IMG/VR virus record: IMGVR_UViG_3300035130_000101
Coordinates: 6,304 to 70,303 of that record
DNA: 64,000 bases
Reading direction: 5' to 3' (one strand)
Source of the DNA: a virus
Position 1 is the first letter of the stretch, and each line of letters begins with the position of its first letter. A program made the translations under genes and the position numbers. Of this stretch, positions 2,224 through 16,481 are shown one piece after another. The notes below the pieces were generated by a model that made no database searches, was not told the DNA's origin, and was given only the letters and a program-made list of their open reading frames with translations.

Positions 2224-2246
2224 TCTCAATTCAAATTGAAAAAATC
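2224..2246. repeat. palindromic CAATTG-type motif, degenerate copy
   Basis: tctcaattcaaattgaaaaaatc. Overlaps the stop of 2226-3356. Confidence 0.5.
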
Positions 2247-3356
2247 TCTAAACTTTTCAACGATGTAGGATAGGTCATTCAGGTTAAGCCCCTGGTGGCA
2301 GCCAATATATAGCCCGTTTCGATTCACCCAATCTGCCACCGGGTAATCGTCCGGCTCCCACAGCCCCTGGTAACACGGCTGCCGAGTCAGCGGCAGGGCC
2401 AGCCTTGATTCAATGCCGTTCTCTGCCAGGAATCGCCGCAGGTTGTTCCTTGTGCCTTCTTGCCGACAAACGAGCGGGTACATCTGAAAAGCGTGTTCTG
2501 AGTGTGACCGGATAGCCGGCAATTGTAGCCGGTCCTCAAGTGACGCTAAATGCTCTGTCAGATAGGCGGCGTTCTCTTGCCGGTGGCTGATAATTTCCGG
2601 TAGATCGTCCAGTTGCGCCAGACCCAGCGCAGCCTCAAGTTCAGTCATCCTAAAGCTATGGCCCACTCGCTTGAAGTCAAATTTGCGCCCAAGCCAGGTA
2701 TGATCGTAATGCTGGCCAGTCGGTAGCTCATTAAGGTCAATTCCGTGGTTGACCAGTGACCGCATATAGAGTGCATATTCGGGATTGTCGGTAATACCCA
2801 GGCCGCCAACTCCGGTCACAAGGATATGAGCCATATAGGTAGAGAAACAAGAAATGTCACCAAACGAGCCAACTGGATAACCAAAGCGGGTGACAAGCAT
2901 CGCCTCGCAGGAATCCTCTATGACCTTGATCTTGCTGCCGTAGATAGCAAACGGGGCAACCGTCCGGCTCAACTCATCTATGGCGCTGGCTTGTCCAAAG
3001 ATGTGGACCGGGATAATGCACTTGGTATTCTCGTTGATTGCCGCTTCGATCTTGGTGTAGTCAAGATCATAGTACCGGCTATCCACGTCAACCAGTACCG
3101 GCTTTAATCGCAAGTGCAAAACGACGTTGACCGTAGCCACAAACGTAATAGCTGGAATGATAACCTCGCTGCCGTCCGGCCAGCCGTGCATCTCCTTTAG
3201 CGTCTGCAAAGCCACCAAGAGCGATGACGTGCCGCTATTGGACAATACTCCATACTGGCAATTGTGCATCTGAGCAAAGCGGGATTCGAACTCTCTCGAC
3301 ATCTGACCGTAGGACAACCGGCCGGTATCTAAAACCTGATTGACCAATTGTTGCAT
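2226..3356 (-). CDS. DegT/DnrJ/EryC1-family PLP/PMP sugar enzyme with His at the Schiff-base Lys position (ColD/E1-like 3-dehydratase signature)
   Basis: SNSGTSSLLVAL, EDSCEAM, and FSTYMAHILVTGVGG aligned to SFxxxKxxxxGEGG puts His where Lys is expected. Met at 3356 abuts the upstream stop at 3358. Confidence 0.7.
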   Translation of the reverse strand: MQQLVNQVLDTGRLSYGQMSREFESRFAQMHNCQYGVLSNSGTSSLLVALQTLKEMHGWPDGSEVIIPAITFVATVNVVLHLRLKPVLVDVDSRYYDLDYTKIEAAINENTKCIIPVHIFGQASAIDELSRTVAPFAIYGSKIKVIEDSCEAMLVTRFGYPVGSFGDISCFSTYMAHILVTGVGGLGITDNPEYALYMRSLVNHGIDLNELPTGQHYDHTWLGRKFDFKRVGHSFRMTELEAALGLAQLDDLPEIISHRQENAAYLTEHLASLEDRLQLPAIRSHSEHAFQMYPLVCRQEGTRNNLRRFLAENGIESRLALPLTRQPCYQGLWEPDDYPVADWVNRNGLYIGCHQGLNLNDLSYIVEKFRDFFNLN

Positions 3357-3357
3357 T

Positions 3358-4182
3358 TTAGGCGTAGCTTGGAATGTCCCAAGTGCTATTTTGTTCAAGG
3401 CTCTTCTCCTGAAAAGCCCAGGTAGAAGGCCGGAACAGGTTGTCACCCGTCATAATAATTTGTTTGCCGGTATATTCTTGCATAACAGACCTGATGTCAT
3501 TCAGGTTTTTTATCCTGGTTTCAAGTTCTTCATTATCTGATTTCTCAATACCAAATGAGGCCGATTCATAAGCAAGACCGTTACATTCGATATAGCGGAA
3601 CCGTTCAGCAATGAGAAGCCATTCAGCGTCAACGCCTGCGCCGTTTGCTGTTGATTCAGCTACAATTTTTTGAGCCACTGGTCTGGAAAGCCCACGAGAG
3701 CCTGATAGTATATCTACATTGTAGCCAAAAAGACGATTGCACTCCAACTCGGTAATTCTTTGCAATTCGGGGTGGGTATTAAATGCCTGTTCGGTTCGGC
3801 CAAAAACAACGAAATCGTATAGAGGAATGTGATTTACTACACTTCGCAATTCATCGGGATAATTGATTATCCAGTAAAGCACTCTGTCAAAATCGCAATA
3901 ATGAAAATGATCGGCTTGAGTTTGCAATCCGAAATTGATACTCATTCTTCGAGCCTGAGCCAAGCCACCCATAGCTTGGACTTTGGCAGCCTCACCTAGT
4001 AAGTCAATTACCTTACCGTCTGTAGTATCCGTCACGACAACAACTATGCTGTCATATATTCGCTGCAATTCAGGCAGATATAATGAGATAGCGTCGATGA
4101 GCTTTCCATCAGAATCGTGAAGGGCTGATAAAAGAGTGGTCACAATAAAGCCCTTTTTACTACTTCTTTTGTCTGTCCTCAT
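3358..4182 (-). CDS. hypothetical protein, possible GT-A-like glycosyltransferase
   Basis: 274 aa. VVVVTDTTDG and HYCDFDR acidic motifs (weak evidence). Confidence 0.35.
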   Translation of the reverse strand: MRTDKRSSKKGFIVTTLLSALHDSDGKLIDAISLYLPELQRIYDSIVVVVTDTTDGKVIDLLGEAAKVQAMGGLAQARRMSINFGLQTQADHFHYCDFDRVLYWIINYPDELRSVVNHIPLYDFVVFGRTEQAFNTHPELQRITELECNRLFGYNVDILSGSRGLSRPVAQKIVAESTANGAGVDAEWLLIAERFRYIECNGLAYESASFGIEKSDNEELETRIKNLNDIRSVMQEYTGKQIIMTGDNLFRPSTWAFQEKSLEQNSTWDIPSYA

Positions 4183-4331
4183 TTATTACATCGATATAGA
4201 TAGTGATAGTTTATGTAGTTGAATTTAGTATTTTTGATTTCTTCTTTAGAGGGAACGTCTGAAACCCAATCGTCAATCTCTTGCCAATTGTGCCTACACT
4301 TTTTCACGAATAGAGATCTTATCTTGTTCAT
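4179..4331 (-). CDS. small hypothetical protein
   Basis: 50 aa from the Met at 4331 (ATGA overlap with the upstream stop). The ORF track lists a longer 63-aa form. Confidence 0.3.
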   Translation of the reverse strand: MNKIRSLFVKKCRHNWQEIDDWVSDVPSKEEIKNTKFNYINYHYLYRCNK

Positions 4332-4516
4332 AGCGCCCCAATGTATCTGAGTAGCACAATTACGACCCAAATAAAAAATGCTGTAAGTCCCAGGCCGATT
4401 ATCAGGGATATTACTCCACCGACAATTGAGGCTATTTTTATCCGCCTGAAATCTCTATCGAAATCATCTGACATTTTTTGAAACCGTTTATCAAAGTCAC
4501 TCATAATCCAAACCAA
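4328..4516 (-). CDS. small membrane protein
   Basis: 62 aa. Hydrophobic span IASIVGGVISLIIGLGLTAFFIWVVIVLL. Confidence 0.4.
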   Translation of the reverse strand: MVWIMSDFDKRFQKMSDDFDRDFRRIKIASIVGGVISLIIGLGLTAFFIWVVIVLLRYIGAL

Positions 4517-5228
4517 ACCTTTCCTTCAATTCCTGTCTGTCTGTCATCTTCAGTCCCGGTATCCCGCTCCGGTCGTGATAGTTCCATTGCCCCCGTTGGA
4601 TGACGTTGACGTGCCGCAGCGGAGCCTGCCGGGTGCCGAGTACCAACCAATCGGGGTGGTTGTTTACCCTGCCAGCCATCTCTATCTGTTGGGCCGTTTC
4701 ACCGGGGACAAGCACCTCTCTCAGTAAGTCTCGCCGCCACATTCCACCCCAGAGTGACATATGGTACTGGCTATTCGGGTCGCTCTTAATCAGGTCGAGA
4801 TAGCCCAGAGTATCATAGGTATTGTAGCCCCAATAGAACTGATTGTAGCCTTCTGGTGGCGTGCCTGAGTAAAGCCGCTCATCAGCCAGGTCGAACTTGA
4901 GAACGTTGGTATACTGGTGCATATAGTCGTAGATCATCTGGACGGCTTTGGTGTCAACGGGACGGGAAAGAAAATAATCATCGAGCATAAGGATAAAGAC
5001 TTCATCGGCTACGGTGTCCAGTACCTTTATGAGTGCATCGCTCCATTTGTTGGCCGGGTAATTTTTGAATTTGCCGATAGAGTAGAAATTGGAATCACAC
5101 TCAATTCTGGTATAGCCGCAAGTCAGGCGAGTATGCTCAAGTCCGTTAAAATATTTGGTCCACTGATACCAAAAGGGGGGAATAGTCCACTGCTGATTGT
5201 CGCTGGTCATTACAATTACTTGTATCAT
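4497..5228 (-). CDS. hypothetical protein, possible glycosyltransferase
   Basis: 243 aa. FILMLDDYFL is a DxD-like motif (weak). Confidence 0.35.
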   Translation of the reverse strand: MIQVIVMTSDNQQWTIPPFWYQWTKYFNGLEHTRLTCGYTRIECDSNFYSIGKFKNYPANKWSDALIKVLDTVADEVFILMLDDYFLSRPVDTKAVQMIYDYMHQYTNVLKFDLADERLYSGTPPEGYNQFYWGYNTYDTLGYLDLIKSDPNSQYHMSLWGGMWRRDLLREVLVPGETAQQIEMAGRVNNHPDWLVLGTRQAPLRHVNVIQRGQWNYHDRSGIPGLKMTDRQELKERFGLDYE

Positions 5229-5291
5229 CGGTTCCTCTACAAAAAATATCCGGGTCTCTGTATGCCGGATGGGATTAAATGTTGTTATCGG

Positions 5292-6191
5292 TTACGTTCC
5301 TTTGTTTCCTCTATACCATTCTATCGTTTGCCTTAACCCATCTATCAGCGACGTTTCCGGCTGCCACCCTAACAGTGACTTAGCTCGGCTATTATCATAT
5401 AGCCGTCTTTTCTCACCAGTAGGCTTTGTCTTATCCCAGGCGACGGTGCCATCGAAACCGGTCAACTCAACCAATAAATCAACCAACTCAGCAATCGACA
5501 CCTCTTGATTAGACGAGATATTGACCGGCTGACCCACGTCGGTATCAATGAATTTGGACAGGGCCTTTGCCACGTCACCAGCATACAGAAAATCTCTAGT
5601 AGCCTTGCCGTCGCCCCAAATGGTAACAACCTCTTTGGCCTCGATAAACTTACGTACCAAGGCAGCTATGACGTGGCCGCTTTCTCCAAAGTTGTCTCTT
5701 GGACCATACATATTAACCGGAATAGGATACTCAAAAGCCATCCCGTACTGCTCGCGGCAGGCTTCCAGTTGCGCCAGGGCCACCCGCTTACTAATGCCAT
5801 ATGAACCATTAGACTTTTCAGGATAGCCACTCCACAGGTTGCCCTCTTTCATCGGCAATAGCGGAAAGTCAGGATAAGCGCAAACCGAGGAGACAAACAC
5901 GAACTTCCCGACGCCAATCTCAGCACACTTCTGGATAAGCTGAGTATTCATCATCACATTGTCATAATAGATGCTGGCCGGGTTTGCCATATTGTAGGAA
6001 ATGCCGCCGACGTTGGCCGCTAGGTGGTAGACGATATCGGGCTTGACAAAATGATCGAAAAGGGCATCAATATGATCATGTTGCCGCAGGTCATAGGCGC
6101 GGGATAGAACGGGGTAAACGTCGTGGTCACTTAAGAGGGGGTAGAGATGGCTGCCAAGAAAGCCAGCGGAGCCGGTCAGGAGTATCTTCAT
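5292..6191 (-). CDS. NAD(P)-dependent sugar epimerase/reductase, GDP-L-fucose synthase (Fcl/ColC)-like
   Basis: MKILLTGSAGFLGS (GxxGxxG), YGISKR (YxxxK), PVNMYGPRDNF...SGHVIAALV. Met at 6191 overlaps the upstream stop. Confidence 0.7.
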   Translation of the reverse strand: MKILLTGSAGFLGSHLYPLLSDHDVYPVLSRAYDLRQHDHIDALFDHFVKPDIVYHLAANVGGISYNMANPASIYYDNVMMNTQLIQKCAEIGVGKFVFVSSVCAYPDFPLLPMKEGNLWSGYPEKSNGSYGISKRVALAQLEACREQYGMAFEYPIPVNMYGPRDNFGESGHVIAALVRKFIEAKEVVTIWGDGKATRDFLYAGDVAKALSKFIDTDVGQPVNISSNQEVSIAELVDLLVELTGFDGTVAWDKTKPTGEKRRLYDNSRAKSLLGWQPETSLIDGLRQTIEWYRGNKGT

Positions 6192-6370
6192 TGCCGTTTC
6201 CTCATTGCCAGCCATACCTCATCGGCCGTCGGCTTGCGCACTTTTTCCGCCGCCAAGTAGGTTTGCAGAATCCAGACGATATGCGCCGTCTTGCTACGCT
6301 GTGCTTTTTGGGCGCTGGCGGTTAGTTGGGTATTGAGTTTATCGGGTAAGCGTAGGGTGAAGCGGGTCAT
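6188..6370 (-). CDS. ribbon-helix-helix (CopG/Arc-like) DNA-binding protein
   Basis: 60 aa. MTRFTLRLPDKLNTQLTASAQKAQRSKTAHIVWILQTYL fits a beta-strand plus two helices. Confidence 0.5.
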   Translation of the reverse strand: MTRFTLRLPDKLNTQLTASAQKAQRSKTAHIVWILQTYLAAEKVRKPTADEVWLAMRKRQ

Positions 6371-6396
6371 TTTTTCTCAATTTCGGTTGATATTTT
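6371..6396. repeat. palindromic motif, degenerate copy
   Basis: tttttctcaatttcggttgatatttt, between 6397-6696 and the start of 6188-6370. Confidence 0.4.
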
Positions 6397-6680
6397 CTAG
6401 CCGTAGCCGTAGCCGTCGCCGGAGCCGTAGCCGTAGCCGTCGCCGGAGCCGTAGCCGTCGCCGGAGCCGTAGCCGTCGCCGTAGCCGTCGCCGTCGCCGG
6501 AGCCGTAGCCGTCGCCGTAGCCGTCGCCGTAGCCGTAGCCGTAGCCGTCGCCGGAGCCGGAGCCGTAGCCGTCGCCGGAGCCGGAGCCGTAGCCGTCGCC
6601 GGAGCCGGAGCCGTCGCCGGAGCCGTAGCCGTCGCCGTAGCCGTCGCCGGAGCCGGAGCCGTAGCCGTCGCCGTAGCTAA
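6397..6680. repeat. GC-rich tandem hexamer-based repeat (GCCGTA/GCCGTC/GCCGGA units)
   Basis: Visible run of gccgtagccgtcgccggagcc units. Encodes (GDGYGS)n on the minus strand. Confidence 0.85.
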
Positions 6681-6696
6681 TCAATGCGCTGTCCAC
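6397..6696 (-). CDS. low-complexity (GDGYGS)n Gly/Asp/Tyr/Ser repeat protein
   Basis: GTG start with GAGGAGG 7 nt upstream. After 7 N-terminal residues the product contains only G, D, Y and S. Confidence 0.45.
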   Translation of the reverse strand: MDSALISYGDGYGSGSGDGYGDGYGSGDGSGSGDGYGSGSGDGYGSGSGDGYGYGYGDGYGDGYGSGDGDGYGDGYGSGDGYGSGDGYGYGSGDGYGYG

Positions 6697-6971
6697 TCTG
6701 GAACCTCCTCAATCGACTGCCGGGCTTTCGGCGTACAATCCAAAATCTCAATGGCTTCGGTCAAAGTGACCAAAGTGACAGCGACGGGGAATTTGCAATC
6801 ATTGGGCTTGCTTACTCCCCGAACGGCCAACTCAGATAATGAGGCTGCCCCTGACCAGTACCACAAGCGTCGGGCATTGGTCAAAACGACTTCCTTACCA
6901 TTCCGGCTTTCCAATTCGCCTGCAAAAACACCGGCGCTGTACGTTCTGACAATTACATACTTCTTGTCCAT
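6681..6971 (-). CDS. hypothetical protein
   Basis: 96 aa. AGGGAG SD upstream of the ATG at 6971. First gene downstream of promoter 7044-7073. Confidence 0.5.
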   Translation of the reverse strand: MDKKYVIVRTYSAGVFAGELESRNGKEVVLTNARRLWYWSGAASLSELAVRGVSKPNDCKFPVAVTLVTLTEAIEILDCTPKARQSIEEVPEWTAH

Positions 6972-7000
6972 TGTTCACTCCCTTTCTATCTGTCTGATTA

Positions 7001-7020
7001 TTTCAATTGCGGTTAATATT
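7001..7020. repeat. palindromic motif, degenerate copy
   Basis: tttcaattgcggttaatatt, in the 5' leader between promoter 7044-7073 and the ATG at 6971. Confidence 0.4.
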
Positions 7021-7043
7021 TCTATAGGAAACAAGCCTATCTC

Positions 7044-7073
7044 ATTATACACCACCTTGACACCATTTGTCAA
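7044..7073 (-). promoter_or_regulatory. sigma70-type promoter
   Basis: Minus strand TTGACA-18 nt-TATAAT, upstream of 6681-6971. Confidence 0.65.
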
Positions 7074-7076
7074 TAA

Positions 7077-7111
7077 GAAAAGCCGCCGGCCCCGATACAC
7101 CGACGGCTTTT
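7077..7111. terminator. imperfect hairpin flanked by A- and T-runs
   Basis: aaaAGCCGcCGG...CCGaCGGCTtttt, downstream of the integrase-like gene. Confidence 0.45.
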
Positions 7112-7184
7112 CCTTCGATCTTTGCAGCGCCCGGCGCGCCTGAACGTGGACGTTGCTAATAGGAAGTGAACCGATTCCATTGTA

Positions 7185-7841
7185 TCACAGGTGGTTACGT
7201 GTGTCAACACATCTCATATACCTGGCAATTGTGCCGGACTTGAGACCGGTTAGCTCGCGCACTACTGCCGGTCCGTCATCCTCTAATCGGTGAACAATGC
7301 CAGACTGATAGATCGTCATCGCTGTTACCGGCTTAGTGATTTCCTGTTCCCTAGCCACCCTTTTGATATGGTTAGTCAGCGTAGACACGGACGTATGTCC
7401 ACCTCTGGACACTGACTTTTTAACAATATCTCCCGGTCTGGTCAAGTTATGATAAGCCTCTCTGGCTAAAATCTGATAAAGTAATGGTAAGCCAGTTATA
7501 ACCGCCTTTACCTGCCCCCGGCTTATAGTCTCTACCAGTTTTGTTTTGTGCAGAGTTGATACCATCCGAACTTCGACGGGCTTTCCAATGTCATCAAAAA
7601 ACATACTAATCGCCCGCTTCGCTTGGTTGGTAGTAGATCGGGAGTATTCGCCGGGCCGGACCATCCAGGCCAAATACTCGTCAATATGCCATTGCTCAAG
7701 CTCGGATAATTTGATCGGAGCGTGAAATTTGGCAAGCTCGATTATCCAGCGGGAATAGAGCCGGACGGTATTTTTGGACAGGCCCGCAAAGGCGCTGTCT
7801 AATTTTTGTTGTAACTCATTTGATGGTTTCATATTTGACAT
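7185..7841 (-). CDS. short tyrosine-recombinase/integrase-like protein (catalytic motifs partly degenerate)
   Basis: 218 aa. N-terminal SAM-like core-binding pattern (VRLYSRWIIELAKF...WHIDEYLAWM...NQAKRAISMFF). NLTRPGDIV resembles box I Arg and IARYM a candidate Tyr, but the HxxR region is not recognisable. Confidence 0.45.
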   Translation of the reverse strand: MSNMKPSNELQQKLDSAFAGLSKNTVRLYSRWIIELAKFHAPIKLSELEQWHIDEYLAWMVRPGEYSRSTTNQAKRAISMFFDDIGKPVEVRMVSTLHKTKLVETISRGQVKAVITGLPLLYQILAREAYHNLTRPGDIVKKSVSRGGHTSVSTLTNHIKRVAREQEITKPVTAMTIYQSGIVHRLEDDGPAVVRELTGLKSGTIARYMRCVDTRNHL

Positions 7842-7862
7842 TATAGCACGTTTTGGTATAAT
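7835..7862 (+). promoter_or_regulatory. sigma70-type promoter (extended -10)
   Basis: TTGACA-16 nt-TATAAT with TGg immediately upstream of the -10. Drives the small-ORF array. Confidence 0.7.
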
Positions 7863-7901
7863 ATCAAGTAAGATATAGTGTTATGATATTGTTAGATTGC
7901 T

Positions 7902-8108
7902 ATGGTTTATCTTGGTTACGTTTACGATGAAATGTCATACTGCCCGGAGTTGGTTGGTGTGTTTGCCACCAAACCTGCCGCTTACCGTGCAGTTAGAAAA
8001 CGGATCAAAGAGATGATTATAGAGCATTGGGAGTGTTGGGCGGGAGGACGATACCGCCACGATTACCATTTTACGTGGCGTATTAAACCCGTTGAACCAG
8101 CAACCTAA
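7902..8108 (+). CDS. hypothetical small protein
   Basis: 68 aa, first gene after promoter 7835-7862. Stop TAA lies inside a CCTAAC boundary motif. Confidence 0.5.
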   Translation: MVYLGYVYDEMSYCPELVGVFATKPAAYRAVRKRIKEMIIEHWECWAGGRYRHDYHFTWRIKPVEPAT

Positions 8109-8218
8109 CAACGGCTTACAGCGGACGGATTGACCTGGCCGTTTACATCGACCGCCCTGGCCGCCGCTGAAGCCGGGGCGTTATACGGCACGTTGCCAAC
8201 AGAGTCCGGAGTAATTGT

Positions 8219-8593
8219 ATGTGGTACAAAAAATACCCTAAATTAAATTCAGCACTATTCACGTATGAGAATAGTGGCAAGCGGAGCAACGACCCGCCCC
8301 CGTATTCGTTAGTTGAGCGTGGTGGCGAACTGATAGACATTGAAGATAAATATTCGGTGTCGGGCTACAAAATTTTAGGCTACACGGAAAGCCCGCCGTT
8401 CCCGGCAGAAGGGTATCCAGCCGTAGCTGTCCTTTTTGAAAATCAATCGTTTGAAAAAATTTGGTGGCACTATCCCTGTAATGAGCCGTATAACAATCAA
8501 AATGCAGGGGACGCCCCAAGCTCGATTTTACAGCCGCCTAATCTTGTGGCTCCAAGTCGGAGTAGGCGGCGAACTAATAAAACGCGCCCCTGA
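8219..8593 (+). CDS. hypothetical protein
   Basis: 124-aa ORF with an ATG start. The 3' end overlaps spacer hairpins. Confidence 0.45.
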   Translation: MWYKKYPKLNSALFTYENSGKRSNDPPPYSLVERGGELIDIEDKYSVSGYKILGYTESPPFPAEGYPAVAVLFENQSFEKIWWHYPCNEPYNNQNAGDAPSSILQPPNLVAPSRSRRRTNKTRP

Positions 8594-8638
8594 TTTTGGG
8601 GCGTTAGGCGGATTGCCGCTAGAAAAGGAGTTGATCTT

Positions 8639-8926
8639 ATGAATGATGTAGATAGGCGACTGATGCAAGACAAACAAGACCAGCTTTTGGCCGTGGCGAA
8701 AAAAGCGATGGTTCAACAGAAAGAAATCAACGAATTGCATCAGGCATTAACGCGAATCGCATCGTACGATACCCCCGACGAGATACGCCAAGACGCGGCT
8801 GATGAATATGGCCTAGATTACGAAGAAGCCTTGGAAATGGCCTATGAAAACATTATCCAGGAGGCCAAATCAATGCTTGGCAAATATCCCCCTAACAAGC
8901 CGGTGGAGCCGACCGGACAATCTTAA
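8639..8926 (+). CDS. hypothetical small protein
   Basis: 95 aa. AAGGAG SD 8 nt upstream. Confidence 0.55.
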   Translation: MNDVDRRLMQDKQDQLLAVAKKAMVQQKEINELHQALTRIASYDTPDEIRQDAADEYGLDYEEALEMAYENIIQEAKSMLGKYPPNKPVEPTGQS

Positions 8927-9000
8927 TTTTCAAGACCAGGCCCAGGCCGGCGGCTCACCGGCGGGCGTTAGGCGGCTTCGCTGCGAAAGGAACAATCGAA

Positions 9001-9420
9001 ATGGGTACGTATTGGGATGGGAATGGAAAGTATCAAGAATGGTCAGACAAACTCGAAGATCAAGTCCCTATGTCTGGCCGGGCTGAAAAATTGCACATTG
9101 ATCTAGTGCGTAATATCAGCAATTGTTATTATGACCACTTCAACAATGGTAACTGCAATTGGGGGAACAAAAGCGAACAATTTGCACACATCGAATACCA
9201 CGCCGATGCACTTCACGAAGCAGCACTGGCCGAAGGCATTGAAAATATCCGTAGTTTACTGTCGTCTATTCGTTCCCCGTTGGACGCTGATTTTGCAAAA
9301 AATTTGTTTTACTGCGGCGAAGATGCAGAGGACTTGGAAGAAAATTGGGAAAAGCTGGCAGATATTATTATCGGTTGGGCGTGGAAGGTTGAGCAGTCTT
9401 TACCAGTACCAGCCGCCTAA
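9001..9420 (+). CDS. hypothetical protein
   Basis: 139 aa. Bracketed by the 9-bp inverted repeat GTTAGGCGG (8967-8975) / CCGCCTAAC (9413-9421); the latter contains the stop codon. Confidence 0.55.
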   Translation: MGTYWDGNGKYQEWSDKLEDQVPMSGRAEKLHIDLVRNISNCYYDHFNNGNCNWGNKSEQFAHIEYHADALHEAALAEGIENIRSLLSSIRSPLDADFAKNLFYCGEDAEDLEENWEKLADIIIGWAWKVEQSLPVPAA

Positions 9421-9567
9421 CAAAAAATTGTACCCGAATTGCTACTGTTCGTTTCAACAACGGCCACACGCTGGCAATCTCGGTTTAAATTGCGGCTCTT
9501 AACGCCAAGCCGCAATCGGGTAAATTTAGGGCGTTAGCTGGCTCATTGCCAGTGGAGGCGAGTGGAA

Positions 9568-9756
9568 ATGCTAGAATGTCCTGATTGCAAAATTCCGTTT
9601 GAGGTGGTAAGAATACATCGCCGCCACCAGACTGCTTTTAAAAATATGAATGCCGCTGTGAAATGGTGTCCGTTTTGTGGTCGCCAGCTAACAAAGCAAT
9701 TCAAGCGGACTGAGCAACCGTCACAGTCCGATCAATCATTAGAGTCTGCCGCTTAA
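9568..9756 (+). CDS. zinc-ribbon small protein
   Basis: CPDC...CPFC pairs. GGAGG SD about 10 nt upstream of the ATG at 9568. Confidence 0.5.
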   Translation: MLECPDCKIPFEVVRIHRRHQTAFKNMNAAVKWCPFCGRQLTKQFKRTEQPSQSDQSLESAA

Positions 9757-9777
9757 TTGCGGCGTTAGGCGGATAAA

Positions 9778-9990
9778 ATGATAGAAAACTACATTTGTAT
9801 CGAACAACGGAAACGGATTGGTAGTATCGTTTACGACGATGTCATACTCGAACTAGAACGATTTGCAGATAGGATAGAAATAGAGATGTCGAACAGTGAC
9901 GATCACAATGTACATATTAGGATAAATATTGAGCAGGCAAAAAAGTTAGCTGAGTTCATAGGCGGTTTTGTTGGTATGGTATCCGCTTGA
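9778..9990 (+). CDS. hypothetical small protein
   Basis: 70 aa. Preceded by a GCCGC/GCGGC hairpin plus GTTAGGCGG. Confidence 0.5.
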   Translation: MIENYICIEQRKRIGSIVYDDVILELERFADRIEIEMSNSDDHNVHIRINIEQAKKLAEFIGGFVGMVSA

Positions 9991-10061
9991 CTTTACGCCG
10001 CAGGGTCGTTCACCCGCCACGGCCCTGGCAGCGGCACAACGGCGGGTGTTAGGCGGACAAA

Positions 10062-10277
10062 GTGGCAAAAATATATGGTGTGACAAAAATACATTTTCTG
10101 GCAGAGCCATTAGTGATAATTGGCGAGAAAAAGATGACGTTGGAAATGGCAGAACGTTGGCTTGCCAGAGAACACGGTGAAAATGCAGAAGTAGACGCAA
10201 TCAATTGCACATCAATATATGATGACCGTGATTATTATATTTTGGGGATTGTAGAAAATAGCAACCAATCCGCCTAA
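10062..10277 (+). CDS. hypothetical small protein
   Basis: 71 aa, GTG start. Bracketed by GTTAGGCGG (10048-10056) / CCGCCTAAC (10270-10278). Confidence 0.45.
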   Translation: MAKIYGVTKIHFLAEPLVIIGEKKMTLEMAERWLAREHGENAEVDAINCTSIYDDRDYYILGIVENSNQSA

Positions 10278-10320
10278 CAAATCGTTCGTAGCGAATTGCT
10301 AACCTTGTTTTTTATTGTGG
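10267..10320 (+). repeat. spacer element family 1, copy 1
   Basis: cctaacaaatcgttcgtagcgaattgctaaccttgttttttattgtggtcggtt. Close match to 11387-11440. Confidence 0.7.
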
Positions 10321-10403
10321 TCGGTTGGGGCCACTACCGCACATTAACCCGCAGGCATTGTGCCAACCCGCAATCGCCACAACTCAAGCGTTAGGTGCTT
10401 GTA

Positions 10404-10690
10404 TGAAAAATCCACGGTGGTTAATGGTAACAAGAAAAATCACAGATGGTTTAGTGCTGGTTTGGTCGCCGGAATGCAATGAGCAATTATGGGCGTTAGG
10501 TAACAGGCCAGGATATAAACATCACAATTGCGCTATCTGTAATAGAGAAATTCCAAAAAATACAGAAAAAATGTACAGACCTGTGGGAAATCCACGCAAT
10601 AGAATGTGCAGAATTTGCCAAGACTGCGCTTTGATGAACCACCCACCTAACAAACATTTGCAGCCCGACCCCGACAGCCGCCGCAAATGA
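10404..10690 (+). CDS. Cys-rich (zinc-binding?) small protein
   Basis: ATG at 10404 after AGGTG. CAIC...CRICQDC. Confidence 0.45.
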
Positions 10691-10762
10691 GACGGCTGCG
10701 GGCGTGGGCACATCGGTATCAAGCGAGCCGCCGCAGGCGGGCGGCTGAAATGTGGCGTTATA
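10646..10762 (+). repeat. spacer hairpin element family 2, copy 1
   Basis: Starts CCTAACAAACATTTGCAGCC and ends GCGGCTGAAATGTGGCGTTA. The arms are mutually complementary. Confidence 0.7.
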
Positions 10763-10777
10763 TGGCTAGGAGGAAAA

Positions 10778-11026
10778 ATGATCTACGACGGACTGCTGGT
10801 TTACGGTGACAATTTCAATCCAGGTGCCGTTTGTCCGCATTACCTGCCAGAGAGCCAATACACTTTTACGTGGTATCGCAACGAGGACGGTATCCCGGTT
10901 TTGAGCGGTTACGATCCTAAAGATGATTTGGCTACAGATTGGCTTTGTGTGTGCGGCCACTATGAAACTGGAGGCTGCTGCTGTAGGCACTGTGGCGCTG
11001 AACCGCCGTGGGGCTGTATGTGCTAA
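10778..11026 (+). CDS. Cys-rich small protein
   Basis: 82 aa. AGGAGG SD. C-terminal CVCGHYETGGCCCRHCGAEPPWGCMC. Confidence 0.5.
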   Translation: MIYDGLLVYGDNFNPGAVCPHYLPESQYTFTWYRNEDGIPVLSGYDPKDDLATDWLCVCGHYETGGCCCRHCGAEPPWGCMC

Positions 11027-11033
11027 CAGCCAT

Positions 11034-11136
11034 ATAACAAACATTTGCAGCCGACCGCCCAGGCTGCGGATAACGAAGATCAAGCGCAATCATAGTCACA
11101 TTTCACCGTGGGCGGCGGCTGAAATGTGGCGTTACT
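11034..11136 (+). repeat. spacer hairpin element family 2, copy 2
   Basis: Starts ATAACAAACATTTGCAGCC and ends GCGGCTGAAATGTGGCGTTA (a 20-mer identical to 10741-10760). Confidence 0.7.
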
Positions 11137-11140
11137 TCTT

Positions 11141-11386
11141 ATGCAAAACAAGCAAAAATATTCAGCGCGTCAAATTATACCACCTCAGTTAACAGATACC
11201 GATAAAGAGCGATTTATCACAAATAGCAAGGCTCATATGTTGTTCGACCTGGCTATAAAACTGGCTGACAAAGGCGACGAACTTACAATTGAGGTAAAAT
11301 TTGAGGAATATAAAACCAAACACTATGACACACCCTGGCTGAATGAAAGCCGGGTTGATATGGTTGCGTGGGTAACAACCCCGTAA
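11141..11386 (+). CDS. hypothetical small protein
   Basis: ATG at 11141 (the ORF track starts at an alternative codon, 11126). Confidence 0.45.
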   Translation: MQNKQKYSARQIIPPQLTDTDKERFITNSKAHMLFDLAIKLADKGDELTIEVKFEEYKTKHYDTPWLNESRVDMVAWVTTP

Positions 11387-11440
11387 CCTAACAAATCATT
11401 CAAGCGGAATTGCTGATCTTGGTTTTTATTGCGTCAGTTA
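11387..11440 (+). repeat. spacer element family 1, copy 2
   Basis: cctaacaaatcattcaagcggaattgctgatcttggtttttattgcgtcagtt. Confidence 0.7.
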
Positions 11441-11443
11441 TAG

Positions 11444-11472
11444 TTGCTAAATAACAGTATTGGAGGTATAAT
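11444..11472 (+). promoter_or_regulatory. sigma70-type promoter
   Basis: TTGCTA-17 nt-TATAAT. Confidence 0.5.
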
Positions 11473-11478
11473 AACCGT

Positions 11479-11556
11479 GTTCAGGATAGCATAACTCAAT
11501 GGGCGCATTTTTTATTTAACGTGGCCCCCATCGGCTAAAAGAGTGCTATCCTGAAC
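11479..11556 (+). ncRNA. 5'-terminal leader stem-loop
   Basis: GTTCAGGATAGCA (11479-11491) and TGCTATCCTGAAC (11544-11556) are perfect 13-bp complements. It begins about 7 nt after the -10 at 11467-11472. Confidence 0.5.
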
Positions 11557-11601
11557 AAATAGCGCCGGCCGGTGGGGGTCTCCATTTTTAAGGGAGGAAT
11601 A

Positions 11602-11997
11602 ATGATATACTTTAGATCAAGAAAATATAAGTCTACCTTTAATTGTTCCTTTATGGCAAAAGATGGCCAAAACATTGATGATTTGTCAAGGTGTCAGATA
11701 GGCGATTCAGTATCAATTATATTCGACATTCCGCAGAAAATTGCAGACATGGTAAGTGAGAGTGGGCTATCTGATAGTGCTGGAATACGCATTTACAAAG
11801 ATAATAATACTTATTCAGTTCATATTCCATTCAAGATAATCGAGCGTGATCATTCGTTCTCTTGGAATGATATCGGCACTTTACAAACCCTAGGAACATC
11901 AATTTACGTTGAGGCAAAAAGCGGATACTGGGAAGATATGTTCAAATGGATATGCCTGAATGAAAGACCAATATGGGCAGTGGAAGATGAACAATGA
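11602..11997 (+). CDS. hypothetical protein
   Basis: AAGGGAGG SD directly upstream of the ATG at 11602. Confidence 0.5.
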   Translation: MIYFRSRKYKSTFNCSFMAKDGQNIDDLSRCQIGDSVSIIFDIPQKIADMVSESGLSDSAGIRIYKDNNTYSVHIPFKIIERDHSFSWNDIGTLQTLGTSIYVEAKSGYWEDMFKWICLNERPIWAVEDEQ

Positions 11998-13190
11998 AAC
12001 GTATCTTCACTATCGAACAGGACAAAGAAGTTGCCGAGCTATACCAGCAGGGAATGTCATCTATCAAGCTCGCCGAGCAATATGGCGTTGACAAGTCAAC
12101 GGTCTTGGGGGCGTTGAAACGGCAAGGGATAAGGCGGAGAACTAATAGAGCCTTTACCAGAGGTGAAGAGCAACAGATAGCTCACATATATCAAGCTGGA
12201 CACAAGATAACGGACATTGCAAAAGCGTATGGCTATGATTTCACTACTATTAAAAATGCCCTCAAGAGACAAGGAGTTAAGCAAGGGGATGACCGGTTTA
12301 CTTTTTCGGCCACACAAGAAAAGGAGATACTTGAAGAGTACAAATCTGGAAACAAGATGGCCGATATTGCAAAAAAATATCAGGCATCCCCAGGAACAAT
12401 ATCTAAAGCGATAACCAATCAGGGTGGCAAGGTCAGAGACGGACGCATCTTTACTGATAGCGAAGAAGTAATGATAGGCCACATTTACGAATCCGGCTTT
12501 AGCCCTCAGCAAATTTCAGTGGCGTATGGCGTATCACGTAGCGCAATTATAAATACAATAGATAGACGTGGGATTGATAAGCGCCCTAACAGAAAAAACT
12601 TTTTTGACGAAAAGGCTTTTGATAGTCTTGACAGTGAAGCCCCCCTATATTGGCTTGGCTTTTGTTATGCCGATGCCAATGTAACTAACTATGAACTCAG
12701 GATTGGACTTGCTATCAAGGATATAGATCACTTGCAGTTACTGGGAGATTTTATGCAAAGTGATAAGACGGTAAAAAAATATCGAAATAATACAGCTTGT
12801 CAATTGAGCTTTGCTAGCGTGTATCTTACAAAAAGGTTGCACTCATTAGGATTGATAGCAGGTAGAGGTGAATTTGAAAAGCTCGTGCCGCATATTCCCG
12901 ATAATCTGGCTCATCATTTTATTCGCGGATATCTTGACGGTGACGGCTGCATTACTGAAAGTAATTATCTTATCAGATTTCTAGGGCAAGTTGATATACT
13001 GGAATGGATTAGAAATATCCTTCATAGTAATGCAGGTGCTAGCAATTCCGTTTCTATTAAAAAACGGAGGGGCATCTACAGTATTGGATGGGGAGGCCGA
13101 TATCAAGGTCCTAAAATAATAGACTATCTTTATAAAAATGCGACTATATATCTCGATAGAAAAAGAAAAGTAGCAAGAAGTTGGAAATAA
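11994..13190 (+). CDS. LAGLIDADG homing endonuclease with four N-terminal tandem HTH repeats
   Basis: Four roughly 55-aa repeats (FTxEQ..I..Y..G.s...IA..YG.s..tI..al.RqG). C-terminal LGFCYADANV and IRGYLDGDGCI are two LAGLIDADG motifs. Confidence 0.7.
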   Translation: MKRIFTIEQDKEVAELYQQGMSSIKLAEQYGVDKSTVLGALKRQGIRRRTNRAFTRGEEQQIAHIYQAGHKITDIAKAYGYDFTTIKNALKRQGVKQGDDRFTFSATQEKEILEEYKSGNKMADIAKKYQASPGTISKAITNQGGKVRDGRIFTDSEEVMIGHIYESGFSPQQISVAYGVSRSAIINTIDRRGIDKRPNRKNFFDEKAFDSLDSEAPLYWLGFCYADANVTNYELRIGLAIKDIDHLQLLGDFMQSDKTVKKYRNNTACQLSFASVYLTKRLHSLGLIAGRGEFEKLVPHIPDNLAHHFIRGYLDGDGCITESNYLIRFLGQVDILEWIRNILHSNAGASNSVSIKKRRGIYSIGWGGRYQGPKIIDYLYKNATIYLDRKRKVARSWK

Positions 13191-13195
13191 AAAAT

Positions 13196-13220
13196 AGGAC
13201 TGAGGACAATCCTCAGTCCT
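13196..13220. terminator. bidirectional rho-independent terminator between convergent genes
   Basis: AGGACTGAGGA-caa-TCCTCAGTCCT (11-bp stem) with an upstream A-run. Confidence 0.75.
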
Positions 13221-13242
13221 ATTAACATAACAACTTTACATA

Positions 13243-14778
13243 TTATAACCAAACGGCATATTTGCTGCCGGTGCTTCTCAGTGAAATTCCGCCGTCCACC
13301 CAGTGGGCGCTCTCGGCGTCGGCTTCTCTCAGGTGACTGATCGGCGCATACTTCACGTTTTGGAGCCTTCCAGCCAATTGGGGCGTCCGCAACACCACCC
13401 GCTGTTCCGTCTTGCACAGCCCCTTGAGACAGAAGTTGATATCGTTCCAGGCCCAGGCGAACACGCCCCGGTCGGTCCAGAACCGCTGCACGTTGCGAAT
13501 GAGATTGAACTCGGTCATTGCCTGCCGATAATCTTTGTGCTGGCGGTAAGTGACGGGGAAGTTGCCGGTCGTCCGCAGCGGAACCATATAGATGTCGCTG
13601 GCGTACTCGCCCGGATCGAGACTGGCCGGCGTGTTGGTGTTGTTCTGTTCGTAGATGCCGGTGTCCTCAATGACCTTGTACGTCCGGCCATTGACGGCAA
13701 TCTGGCCCATCACCCGCATATTGTCCCGGTCCTGAATGTTCGAGCGACCGTCCAGCGTCACTCGCGCATTGCTGGCCGCAGCGATGGCAATGGCTACCTG
13801 GTCGGTATTGTAGGCAATCGGCCATACCCTGGACATCTCATACCACAGTTGAGGCCGCATCGCAAAGACCCACTCAGCCGGTAGCATCCCGGTATCAGCC
13901 GCCAACGTGTAGATGAAATACTCCATCATCGATATCTGGTTGACCAGGGCCGTGGCATTGGAAGCCACATCAGCATAGGCAAAGTTGTCGATATAGCTAT
14001 CCAACGACGGACAGGCAGTGTTTGTGTCGGCGTCAACCTGGCCCGTGGCAATCTGGTTGTCAAGGCCGGGGAACTCTTTATAACCACCGCCGATGTTGTT
14101 GTTGGCCGGGCTGCCTTGCCACATATGCGTGGTAAGAAGCCGCTCCAGCCGCACCCCGACGCTGACCATCTGGGACATCGTTACCAGGTTCAAAATCTGA
14201 TTGGGATTCAGGCCGCCGGGCATCAACCCGGCTTGTGTTCCCATATTCAGATTCATCCCGTGTAGTACCAGGTCCGAGAAGTCACCCCGGTTGATACGTA
14301 GACCAAGTTCGTCCATTTCGATAGTTTCAGTCGAACGGGCCACCCGCCCGAATTGCGCCGTCAGGTTACAGGCTTTCAAGTAGCCCGTGGGCGCATCCTC
14401 GCAGGGCGTCGCCGGTTCGTTGCCGATGTCATCCGAAAAGCCGGACAAAGCCCCAAAGCGCGGATCTTCGTCATTGTTCGGCAGAAGCGGCAAAACGGAT
14501 GAAATGCCGTGTGGCTGGACGTGGGTCGAGATGATGTCACGTTCCAAACCAAGAGTGGAGAAGGTGCCGCGCAAGCCGTGAAGCTTTTGAGCAGTCATCG
14601 TGGTGGCCGGCGCTTTGGTAATCAGGTCGTTGACCATTTCCATTGCCTTGACCTGAAATTCCTTGTCGCTGTTAGTCTGGCCGATCTGGTTGGCCGCCAG
14701 CGCCGCCAGAAGCGCCTGATTTTGCTGAATCAAGCCCATCAGTTGTTCAGAACTCATTGTGTCACTCATTGCCGCCAT
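13243..14778 (-). CDS. putative major capsid protein
   Basis: 511 aa, last gene of the head operon, directly after the protease/scaffold gene. Assigned by synteny only. Confidence 0.5.
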   Translation of the reverse strand: MAAMSDTMSSEQLMGLIQQNQALLAALAANQIGQTNSDKEFQVKAMEMVNDLITKAPATTMTAQKLHGLRGTFSTLGLERDIISTHVQPHGISSVLPLLPNNDEDPRFGALSGFSDDIGNEPATPCEDAPTGYLKACNLTAQFGRVARSTETIEMDELGLRINRGDFSDLVLHGMNLNMGTQAGLMPGGLNPNQILNLVTMSQMVSVGVRLERLLTTHMWQGSPANNNIGGGYKEFPGLDNQIATGQVDADTNTACPSLDSYIDNFAYADVASNATALVNQISMMEYFIYTLAADTGMLPAEWVFAMRPQLWYEMSRVWPIAYNTDQVAIAIAAASNARVTLDGRSNIQDRDNMRVMGQIAVNGRTYKVIEDTGIYEQNNTNTPASLDPGEYASDIYMVPLRTTGNFPVTYRQHKDYRQAMTEFNLIRNVQRFWTDRGVFAWAWNDINFCLKGLCKTEQRVVLRTPQLAGRLQNVKYAPISHLREADAESAHWVDGGISLRSTGSKYAVWL

Positions 14779-16481
14779 CCTGCCTGAGTCCAGCCCAGTT
14801 CATTCCACCATAACCCCGTCGAGCCGTCCTGCTTGGCCTTGTTCTGTTCTGGCCCTGGCACTTCGCCTGTCACCTGATTTTGCTTGGTGAAAAGCTCGCT
14901 CTTGACAAACGAGGCCAGCGACGCTTCCGGGATGGAAGCCGCCTGTTTTTCAAGCCGCTCTTTGTCCGTTTTCTCCAACTCCTTGAGCCGGCTATCAATG
15001 ACCTGGACGCTCTCGCCAATGGCCCTGATAGAGGTGGTCAAAGCCCGGACTGCCTCGACCATATCCGCCGAAGGCTGCTCCGCTTGAGCCGGGGCAGGTT
15101 GCTCTTTGGCCTGTTCTACCGGTGGCGTCTTTTCTTTGCTCTCCGTTCCGGCGTCGCTGGCTTGCTTGGCCCGCTGCGCCAGCTCATCTTCCATTTGTTT
15201 TACCCGCTCCTCGCCAAAGGCTGCAATGAACTCCTCTCGCTTGTGAGCCGGTATCTCTTTTACATCGTTCATACCGTTACTCTCCTTACTGATTAAATGA
15301 AACGCTAAACTGTTAGCTGCCGCCTTTGTCGGCAGGAACGTAATTTCCCTACTACGCCGGCGAGTGATAATCGACTTGTCCTTATCATCTTCCCGGCGCA
15401 CCTCTTTGCGAGGCATACCGTGTGACATCCCCCGCCAGTTTGCTTTGATGACACCTTCAGCCGCCCACCCCTTATCTTTGTCGAACGTGCCGCCGGCGAT
15501 GCAAAAGCCGGACTTTTCGTCATAGGCGTGATAGTGGGTTTTCCCGACCGGATAGGGATAATGCCACAGCCAGACTTCCGGCATCGGCCACTCGCCGCTA
15601 TTTACCGCCTGGTCGAACTCTTTGTGAGCGTCGGAGGAGATGATCTCAGGCGGGTTGTCGTTGTCACGGTAATTGTTGGTATATGCGCCAAGCCAGTGGT
15701 ATTGCCCGTCCACCTCTTTCCAGATGTGAGAGAAGGTATTTTTTTCTAACTGCGGTTGAGATTTCTCTTTCAGGCCGAATATCTCTTTGGTTTTGGCAAT
15801 GGCCCGGTCGATAATCGTTTCCTGCTCGACTTCCTTTTGGGTGTTTTCCAAGATGCGCCGGGCTTTGGCTTGCAACGAGGCTTTCTTGTCAGCGGAGATG
15901 CCCTTCATCTGAGGGATACGGGCGATTGCATTGCGTATATGGGGCAGATCAACTTTGCCGGAAGCGTCTTTGTAGGGCAAGTGGCGACAGGTGCGGGGCT
16001 TGGTTTTGTTTTCGCTGTCCTTTTCGCCGCAGCCGGATTCAACGTAGAGGAAGCTGGAGTCAGGTAAGTTGTTGACGAAAGCGGTTGACCAGACGGCTTT
16101 CAAAACGTCGTCACGATCATCAACCTCTTTATCGTCGCTTTCATCTATCTCTTTCAAATCACCACGAGCCACACCCATTCGGTTAATAAACTCCCCGGCC
16201 AGATTAGCCAGAGCGCCGGGCTTGTCCTCTACCATATCGGACATCATAATATTTGAGGCCAGGTCCCTGAAATACTCGGTCGCCTTGCGTACATCGGCTT
16301 CCATCTCCCGGCTTTCCATATAGGCGTCAAGCTCTTCAAACGAAGTAATACCGGGCGGAATCCACATCGGTTCATCATACATCTTAGTAACGTCGGCCTC
16401 TTTGGTTTCCTGGCCGGCGTCTTTGTTTTCGGTATCTTCGGCTTTGTCTGCGGTTTTTGGGTCGTCTGCTTTGTTGCCCAT
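14766..16481 (-). CDS. putative prohead protease / scaffold fusion protein
   Basis: 571 aa. Acidic N-terminus. The central SDAH...GMSHGM...REITFLPTKAAANSLA resembles HK97-type (U35/S78) prohead protease blocks. C-terminus is coiled-coil and Lys/Glu-rich. Confidence 0.5.
   Translation of the reverse strand: MGNKADDPKTADKAEDTENKDAGQETKEADVTKMYDEPMWIPPGITSFEELDAYMESREMEADVRKATEYFRDLASNIMMSDMVEDKPGALANLAGEFINRMGVARGDLKEIDESDDKEVDDRDDVLKAVWSTAFVNNLPDSSFLYVESGCGEKDSENKTKPRTCRHLPYKDASGKVDLPHIRNAIARIPQMKGISADKKASLQAKARRILENTQKEVEQETIIDRAIAKTKEIFGLKEKSQPQLEKNTFSHIWKEVDGQYHWLGAYTNNYRDNDNPPEIISSDAHKEFDQAVNSGEWPMPEVWLWHYPYPVGKTHYHAYDEKSGFCIAGGTFDKDKGWAAEGVIKANWRGMSHGMPRKEVRREDDKDKSIITRRRSREITFLPTKAAANSLAFHLISKESNGMNDVKEIPAHKREEFIAAFGEERVKQMEDELAQRAKQASDAGTESKEKTPPVEQAKEQPAPAQAEQPSADMVEAVRALTTSIRAIGESVQVIDSRLKELEKTDKERLEKQAASIPEASLASFVKSELFTKQNQVTGEVPGPEQNKAKQDGSTGLWWNELGWTQAGWRQ

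Follow-up and report, generated by a model that had tools for sequence, protein, structure and literature searches.

Integrons are regarded as bacterial devices, and reports of them in phages are confined to rare captured fragments and small clusters of attCs. In a screen of 10,705 phage genomes (Qi et al., 2023; PMC9892861), three complete integrons and one In0 were identified in temperate phages, together with 17 clusters of attC sites lacking integron integrases (CALINs). The complete integrons and the In0 were read as captures from hosts, the CALINs contained as few as two attCs, and phage attCs were recombined by IntI1 (Qi et al., 2023). Here we describe positions 7185-11441 of a 64,000-nucleotide (nt) stretch of phage DNA, referred to as the window, which comprises bases 6304-70303 of the 70,303-bp IMG/VR virus record IMGVR_UViG_3300035130_000101; coordinates are positions in the window unless another locus is named. 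This region is very probably an integron-type platform in a phage, consisting of a degenerate homologue of the integron integrase IntI (mini-IntI), a promoter, an attI-like site and ten promoterless cassettes.

Like the class 1 mobile and the sedentary chromosomal integrons, the locus possesses attC sites with an R'' (YTAAC) and an R' (GTTA) box, an L''/L' helix that is bulged on one arm and a variable centre, and the attC lengths in the phage (88-129 nt) also resemble those of integrons. Each cassette carries one co-oriented, promoterless open reading frame (ORF) behind a single strong promoter, and an attI-like GTT junction is accompanied by an intI-related gene on the opposite strand. Unlike in those integrons, the intI homologue encodes only 218 amino acids (aa), lacks the catalytic core, has no PF00589 match and stays below the TIGR02249 cut-off; the locus is also carried by a 70-kb phage with terminal repeats, with a cargo of small phage-type ORFs. 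The phage integrons and CALINs described previously are similar in that attC clusters occurred in virulent as well as temperate phages and included DNA methyltransferase cassettes, but no conserved truncated integrase, promoter or attI platform was described there (Qi et al., 2023). While attC sites in phages are already known, a phage platform headed by a shortened, apparently dead IntI was found neither in PMC9892861 nor in the literature that we searched. With eight canonical attCs and no catalytic integrase, the locus is a CALIN by definition. Standard software would file it as such and miss mini-IntI, a blind spot of integron finders that require a catalytic IntI and label such loci orphan attC clusters.

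The original prediction, made from the DNA letters of the window, had described an array of about ten tiny ORFs separated by stem-loop spacers. Ten ORFs of 62-139 aa are indeed present, and nine of the ten spacers fold (z = -1.5 to -2.8 relative to dinucleotide shuffles) into long hairpins, each closed by a TAAC/GTTA helix (YTAAC/GTTA), while the tenth does not fold in this way. The motif positions given were all correct: GTTAGG is found at 8603, 8967, 9764 and 10048, with additional copies at 10390 and 10495, CCGCCTAAC is found at 9413 and 10270, and genes D and G are each flanked by GTTAGGCGG ... CCGCCTAAC. The motif CCTAACAA also withstood a comparison with shuffled sequences, in which its six copies, all on the + strand at 8104-11394, contrasted with 1.99 +/- 1.33 expected, and none of 100 shuffles reached six. 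All five exact copies of GCGTTAGG are likewise on the + strand (8601-10500), and the seven copies of CTAACAA in the entire genome are all within the array. When one mismatch was allowed, GCGTTAGG was not enriched across the window (31 found vs. 44 expected), so the signal lies in the clustering of the exact copies. One exact GCGTTAGG at 10493-10500 falls within gene H and lacks a nearby partner box; it is either a chance occurrence or a relic of an older junction. Four details required correction. The sixth element is degenerate, and of the tenth only the left half is present. The second element exists, but its start is 8486-8494 (GTATAAC) instead of 8534, and about 100 nt of gene B therefore fall within it. 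The placement of the motif at or over the upstream stop codon holds for genes A, D and G (three of nine), whose stops are inside the YTAAC box, but not for the rest: genes B, C, E, F and H extend 6-103 nt beyond the box start (34-103 nt for B, C, E and H), and the stop of gene I is 8 nt before the box.

By sequence, structure and orientation, the spacers are integron attC sites. For comparison, we used a covariance model (R1) built from the attCs of 11 class 1 integron cassettes (i.e., aadA1, aadA2, aadB, qacF, VIM-2, dfrA1, dfrA27, aac(6')-Ib, aac(3)-Ia, cmlA1 and orfF), which were located behind annotated resistance cassettes in plasmids identified with an attI1 query (at least 5000 records matched at 100%). 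R1 contains no phage sequence, is restricted to the R-box and L-box pairs, and was searched with filters off. Eight matches (21-37 bits, E 3e-7 to 5e-3) were found in the window, all of them on the + strand inside the array. The next-best match in the window had an E-value of 3.8, background elsewhere was at or below 10 bits, and the 6.4 kb of the genome outside the window contained no R1 match. An Rfam scan of 7000-12500 returned nothing relevant and no attC family match.

The ends of these attCs fit the inverse core R'' (RYYYAAC) and the core R' (GTTRRRY), which are mutually complementary. The R'' 7-mers of the eight canonical sites are ACCTAAC, GTATAAC, CCCTAAC, GCCTAAC, AGCTAAC, GCCTAAC, ACCTAAC and ATATAAC, and the R' 7-mers are GTTATAC, GTTAGGC (three times), GTTAGCT, GTTAGGT, GTTATAT and GTTACTT; all eight retain the AAC and GTT, and some depart from the purine/pyrimidine consensus at one position. 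When 22 phage attCs from the window and its relatives were aligned to R1, 88% of the cells were paired (96% in the L-box), compared to 22-40% in controls in which the partner column was slid by 1-3 positions. Compensatory changes were found in seven of the nine L-box pairs, and none of 500 shuffles reached the observed covariation score. All 22 attCs share a left-hand T-T-(bulge)-N-A-G-C...G-A-C and a right-hand G...C-T-N-A-A, a layout also seen in the aadA1 attC, with a conserved bulged A after L'' and a bulge after TT. Minimum free-energy folds reproduce these helices together with the single-base bulges of the 5' arm. Apart from the attC boxes, the spacer interiors are mostly unrelated. The ten co-oriented cassettes end in eight canonical attCs, one degenerate attC and one half site. 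The degenerate attC6 retains its hairpin and an R' of GTTAGGC, while its R'' is mutated to GCTTGAC; the right arm of the tenth attC was not found. REP- or MITE-like elements (repetitive extragenic palindromes or miniature inverted-repeat transposable elements) were dismissed as the attC model accounts for the spacers; transposase genes and target duplications were not sought.

The hairpins might instead act purely at the level of RNA, as structures between early genes that serve in processing, stabilisation or translational coupling and have no part in DNA recombination, much as RNase III sites separate the early genes of T7. The sense strand folds stably, the array reads as a single operon, and the stops of genes A, D, G and I are in or just before the 5' arm. 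At the other end, the G of R' is 10-39 nt before the following start codon, and in the ribosome-binding regions of genes F, G and H the R' box stands in place of the Shine-Dalgarno sequence. We consider this explanation highly improbable, given that the elements match, in one orientation only, a recombination-site model derived from unrelated clinical integrons, adjoin an IntI homologue, coincide at their GTT cores with the points at which homology between genomes breaks, and belong in part to an attC subtype that in bacteria is found beside full-length IntI. We also rejected RNase III sites like those of T7 as the only function of the hairpins. It should be noted that attC sites have been reported to affect translation of downstream cassettes, and an RNA role is likely additional rather than alternative. 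The geometry makes a secondary role in coupling termination to initiation plausible, and the hairpins in the mRNA would probably also modulate translation of the next gene.

The predicted cassette promoter matches the consensus at 12 of 12 positions and overlaps, hexamer for hexamer, the oppositely directed mini-IntI promoter, the -35 element of one lying over the -10 element of the other in an almost palindromic arrangement that suggests mutually exclusive transcription. The -10 element of the mini-IntI promoter covers the annotated ATG, suggesting a leaderless mRNA that begins at Met4. No further promoter-like site was found on the + strand between 7862 and 11444, no spacer contains a terminator U-tract, and the sole terminator-like site on the + strand of 7902-11441, at 9271, is inside gene D. 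With one promoter and no terminator in the spacers, the array is predicted to be a single transcription unit, and its spacers differ from the promoter early stem-loop (PeSL) elements to which the original prediction had compared them. In T4-type phages, each PeSL spacer provides an early promoter and a stem-loop, and PeSLs are thought to shuffle by homologous recombination. Small co-oriented genes lacking an assigned function between repeated structured spacers in a plastic region would be a similar outcome, and attC8 and attC9 share identical 20-mers. That the cassettes are PeSL-type modules shuffled in this way is, however, hardly tenable: the spacers hold no promoter-like site and are conserved only in their attC boxes, T4-like genes were not seen, and the attC model explains the sequence, asymmetry and spacing of the elements.

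The attI-like site, whose GTTAGAT core follows the cassette promoter and precedes the first ATG (7902), coincides with a loss of homology. DNA similarity of the window to two related viral contigs, L005 (89%) and L009 (79%), stops at 7894/7895, inside the GTTA of this site; conservation among the three phages extends to ATATTGTTA, beyond which their sequences are unrelated.

The mini-IntI protein (P0001) has an N-terminal match to Pfam Phage_int_SAM_4. Its match to TIGR02249, the integron integrase profile, was significant (E 4e-12) but reached only 46 bits vs. a cut-off of 265 and covered profile positions 12-125 of 315; with PF00589 absent as well, a test for complete integrons found no functional IntI. 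The sole sequence match of P0001 in the PDB was the Vibrio integron integrase VchIntIA (2A3V), to whose residues 19-118 and 235-282 the P0001 residues 22-118 and 143-190 correspond, respectively. For an AlphaFold model of P0001 (predicted local distance difference test score 77), 2A3V was again the top Foldseek match (E 3e-5), with XerA and lambda Int ranking below it. Approximately 116 residues, corresponding to about 119-234 of VchIntIA, are missing from P0001, and HTLRHS is changed to MTIYQS with loss of the HxxR motif. In tyrosine recombinases, the stretch that is missing here contains the IntI-specific helix as well as the Lys and the first catalytic Arg; mini-IntI, an integrase without a catalytic core, should therefore be catalytically inactive.

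An HMMER scan of 1.84 billion representatives showed that mini-IntI belongs to a family comprising 17 or more clusters (183-236 aa), and full-length integrases appeared only at E ~1e-6 or weaker. The family conserves the motifs LVRP..YSRS..N and QSGIVH and a near-invariant Tyr (Y208), and the ratio of nonsynonymous to synonymous substitutions (dN/dS) relative to the 76%-identical L005 orthologue was 0.12, with dS near saturation. Given this family, its retained motifs and the purifying selection, mini-IntI is not a decaying pseudogene. In tblastn searches of 50,697 GenBank phage records, neither P0001 nor its L009 counterpart P0014 had a match, and a search of 72,556 plasmids with P0001 was also negative. 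A search with a seven-sequence mini-IntI alignment returned only an already known viral contig and nothing in metagenome contigs. Because Y208 is at the position of the catalytic Tyr, QSGIVH is conserved under strong purifying selection, and other tyrosine recombinases were not found in the phage contigs examined, mini-IntI might itself be a recombinase with a non-canonical active site around the retained tyrosine. The missing residues, the replacement of His-x-x-Arg by Met-x-x-Tyr and the loss of the second His/Trp make this very unlikely, and we know of no tyrosine recombinase that functions without the Arg-His-Arg triad. A precedent for a regulatory role of mini-IntI is offered by SPbeta MrpR/YopR (PDB 8A0A and 8BJ6), a phage protein with a tyrosine-recombinase fold that lacks a working active site and is used for DNA binding. 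Both structures are among the weak Foldseek matches of mini-IntI (ranks 22-42, match probabilities of 0.2-0.4). Unlike mini-IntI, MrpR/YopR is of full length (~320 aa), while mini-IntI is closest to IntI and its DNA binding is putative.

We compared six mini-IntI lineages with identities of 25-76%, i.e., those of the window phage and of L005, L009, L022, L025 and L026. L005 is an 82.5-kb viral contig whose mini-IntI is 76% identical to P0001 and in which R1 found 3-4 attCs. L009 is an 83-kb viral contig with terminal repeats, a 35%-identical mini-IntI and four R1 matches. The mini-IntIs of L022, L025 and L026 are 25-30% identical, and R1 gave two weak matches, five matches (down to E 5e-9) and one match, respectively. 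In all six lineages, an attC array of small genes is divergent from the mini-IntI gene and is faced by a TTGACATTATA...TATAAT promoter, and cassette content differs in every lineage. Mini-IntI, the promoter and the array are conserved as a platform in six divergent lineages with differing cassettes. No full-length IntI was found in four related phage contigs.

One cassette (8178-8614), consisting of gene B and attC2, recurs in L009 as the last cassette, at 86.5% identity and in a different array position. The shared sequence begins at the junction of GCG and TTATACGG, upstream of which the attC interiors are unrelated, and ends just after GTTAGGYGGATT. Gene B with attC2 is the unit expected of an integron cassette, present in arrays with very different mini-IntIs, and the cassette boundaries between genomes fall at the GTT core. 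The proposal in the original prediction of recombination hot spots that shuffle small genes was right in substance: homology between related phages breaks at the spacers, and comparison of their gene content revealed this one cassette in a different array. The comparison also bears on whether the locus is a fossil, captured once from a host chromosome and immobile since, with hairpins kept for RNA roles and mini-IntI a decaying remnant. The loss of the catalytic residues of the integrase, the degenerate and truncated attCs and the drift of several ORFs into their own attC would all be expected of a fossil. Such an origin is nevertheless fairly unlikely in view of the conserved length of mini-IntI across its clusters and its low dN/dS, the retention of promoter and array in six lineages with different cassettes, the movement of cassette B between arrays with 35%-identical mini-IntIs and the compensatory changes that preserve L-box pairing.

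The attC7 subtype links the phage platform to bacteria. The attC7 sequence is 72-86% identical to attCs of L005, L009, the further viral locus L011 and the bacterial loci L027-L042, and the subtype is also found in two further viral contigs. A 19-mer from the attC7 interior occurs in 16 stretches of species-representative genomes, of which about 11-12 are in metagenome-assembled genomes (MAGs) of Chloroflexota (Caldilineaceae, Anaerolineales, Promineifilaceae and "Chloroflexia"), several with activated-sludge isolate names. R1 confirmed attCs at these bacterial loci, often two or three per locus. Four of the five attC7-subtype genomes tested possess a full IntI (TIGR02249, 447-483 bits vs. the cut-off of 265), compared to none of 14 control genomes, and one Caldilineaceae contig contains IntI (3726-4724) together with a divergent gene block ending in the attC7 subtype (154-25). 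Mini-IntI was not found in the bacterial loci carrying this subtype. The identity between the phage mini-IntI and the Chloroflexota IntIs is 21-28%, so the domestication of mini-IntI would be old. The host is probably a member of the Chloroflexota, whose IntI probably moves the phage cassettes.

Under an integron-type platform, recombination of folded single strands between attC and attI and between attC sites would lead to gain, loss and exchange of cassettes. Since mini-IntI lacks the catalytic Arg, Lys, His-x-x-Arg and IntI-specific insertion, the most likely source of catalysis during infection would be the full-length IntI that the Chloroflexota host supplies in trans. Mini-IntI itself would most likely bind DNA at attI and at the overlapping promoters, as an accessory factor or a regulator, and the cargo may be exchangeable early genes for host takeover or anti-restriction. 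A more tentative proposal, to which we give somewhat less than even credence, is that of a distinct and widespread class of phage integrons, in which a catalytically dead, domesticated IntI, a fixed strong promoter and attI form a conserved docking platform, the host IntI is borrowed to swap counter-defence cassettes (Mom, DNA methyltransferases and small proteins without assigned function) with other phages and with the host chromosomal pool, and mini-IntI recruits, directs or restrains the host enzyme. If the platform is real, integron arrays would be kept by phages as an adaptive organ of their own, carrying early or anti-defence genes, and phages would be linked to the cassette pool of the Chloroflexota, which are abundant filamentous bacteria of activated sludge. 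Mini-IntI would then be a further example of domestication in which a recombinase has become a non-catalytic partner, and the small cassette ORFs would make a ready candidate list of anti-defence genes.

Several points weigh against this interpretation of the locus. The R1 E-values are rough, as they come from a shortened model calibration, and the covariation alignment was fitted to R1, so its numbers are somewhat inflated. The role of mini-IntI is one that we infer entirely, and cassette exchange is deduced from genome comparison, with homology breakpoints at GTT cores. Only one shared cassette was found among the loci compared, and its right boundary is 8-11 nt beyond GTT, which fits an extended R' consensus and not a clean crossover. 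No attC sites were found around the homologues of gene B elsewhere. The host assignment is based on one attC subtype in MAGs, with a few matches in bins other than Chloroflexota.

Table 1. Coordinates of the predicted components of the platform in the window.
Feature	Position	Strand	Description
mini-IntI gene (P0001)	7185..7841	-	218 aa; likely true start Met4 at 7832
Cassette promoter (Pc analogue)	7835..7862	+	TTGACA, 16 nt, TGgTATAAT; extended -10
mini-IntI promoter	7840..7867	-	TTGATA-16-TATAAT; 11/12 matches, with TG
attI-like site	7880..7897	+	Conserved ATATTGTTA; core GTTAGAT at 7891-7897
Gene A	7902..8108	+	68 aa; no family match; stop TAA inside R'' box
attC1	8101..8188	+	R1 21.0 bits, E 0.0048
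Gene B	8219..8593	+	124 aa; last ~34 aa within attC2
attC2	8486..8611	+	R1 22.0 bits, E 0.0027
Gene C	8639..8926	+	95 aa; no family match
attC3	8888..8975	+	R1 29.9 bits, E 2.1e-5
Gene D	9001..9420	+	139 aa; no family match; stop in R''
attC4	9413..9541	+	R1 23.8 bits, E 8.8e-4; 80% identical to L009 attC
Gene E	9562..9756	+	62-64 aa; zinc ribbon; Zn_ribbon_8 E 5e-4
attC5	9684..9772	+	R1 28.7 bits, E 4.3e-5
Gene F	9778..9990	+	70 aa; no family match
attC6, degenerate	9982..10056	+	R1 6.4 bits; fold -38.8 kcal/mol, z -2.8
Gene G	10062..10277	+	71 aa; no family match; stop in R''
attC7	10270..10398	+	R1 36.8 bits, E 3.2e-7
Gene H	10403..10690	+	95 aa; Cys-rich; no family match
attC8	10643..10765	+	R1 22.4 bits, E 0.002
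Gene I	10778..11026	+	82 aa; Cys-rich; no family match
attC9	11030..11139	+	R1 32.3 bits, E 4.8e-6
Gene J	11141..11386	+	81 aa; no family match
Tenth attC, left half only, array end	11384..11441	+	R1 7 bits; 80% identical to attC7 left arm

None of the ten cassettes in the window could be assigned to a family with confidence (Table 1). Gene E, a zinc ribbon, also matches phrog_6422 (Lar-like, restriction alleviation) weakly, at E 1.4e-4. Elsewhere, gene B homologues have a length of about 90 aa and belong to ordinary phage operons, so gene B is of phage type and its last 34 residues are read-through into attC2. Among the relatives, the first cassette of L009 belongs to the Mom family (E 1e-11), and one cassette of L025 encodes an N6/N4 DNA methyltransferase; Mom and DNA methyltransferases are classical anti-restriction functions.

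The virus record has 127-bp direct terminal repeats and a completeness estimate of 100%, and the genome codes for a tape-measure protein, a large terminase subunit and helicases. No tRNA genes were found in it, and a Pfam scan of the whole genome detected no catalytic tyrosine-recombinase domain (PF00589). A Logan contig of a separate assembly matched the phage at 100% over 11 kb, and a blastn search with the array gave no match among GenBank phages.

Just beyond the mini-IntI gene is a GC-rich tandem repeat of a hexamer (6339-6708), of which one minus-strand frame is nearly pure (GDGYGS)n and other frames are (AT)n or RS-rich. Sugar-modification genes, including those for a DegT-type aminotransferase and an NAD-dependent epimerase, follow at 2226-6215. 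In L022, similar sugar-modification genes plus glycosyltransferases (11057-15459) are beside a 30%-identical mini-IntI, a neighbourhood syntenic with that in the window. On the other side, the last half attC is followed by a promoter (TTGCTA-17-TATAAT, 11444-11472) and by a perfect 14-nt inverted repeat (11478-11491 and 11544-11557) with a 52-nt loop, located just 5' of the gene at 11572-11997. This repeat, for which there was no Rfam match, may be a structured leader or regulatory RNA. Directly downstream of the array, 11994-13190 encodes a 398-aa protein with several helix-turn-helix domains and a match to the phrog_4645 'endonuclease' (E 7e-55), which may be a homing-type endonuclease module.

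Further attC elements were also noticed. The L009 phage carries a second attC pair (L011; IMGVR_UViG_3300042731_008413, 63971-70582) approximately 50 kb from its main array. In another viral record (L007; IMGVR_UViG_3300031653_000003), a lone attC7-type element at 1100-1410 is located between a GC-rich, apparently non-coding stretch and a promoter-like TTGACA...TACCAT, and may represent the remnant of a cassette or the insertion of a single attC.

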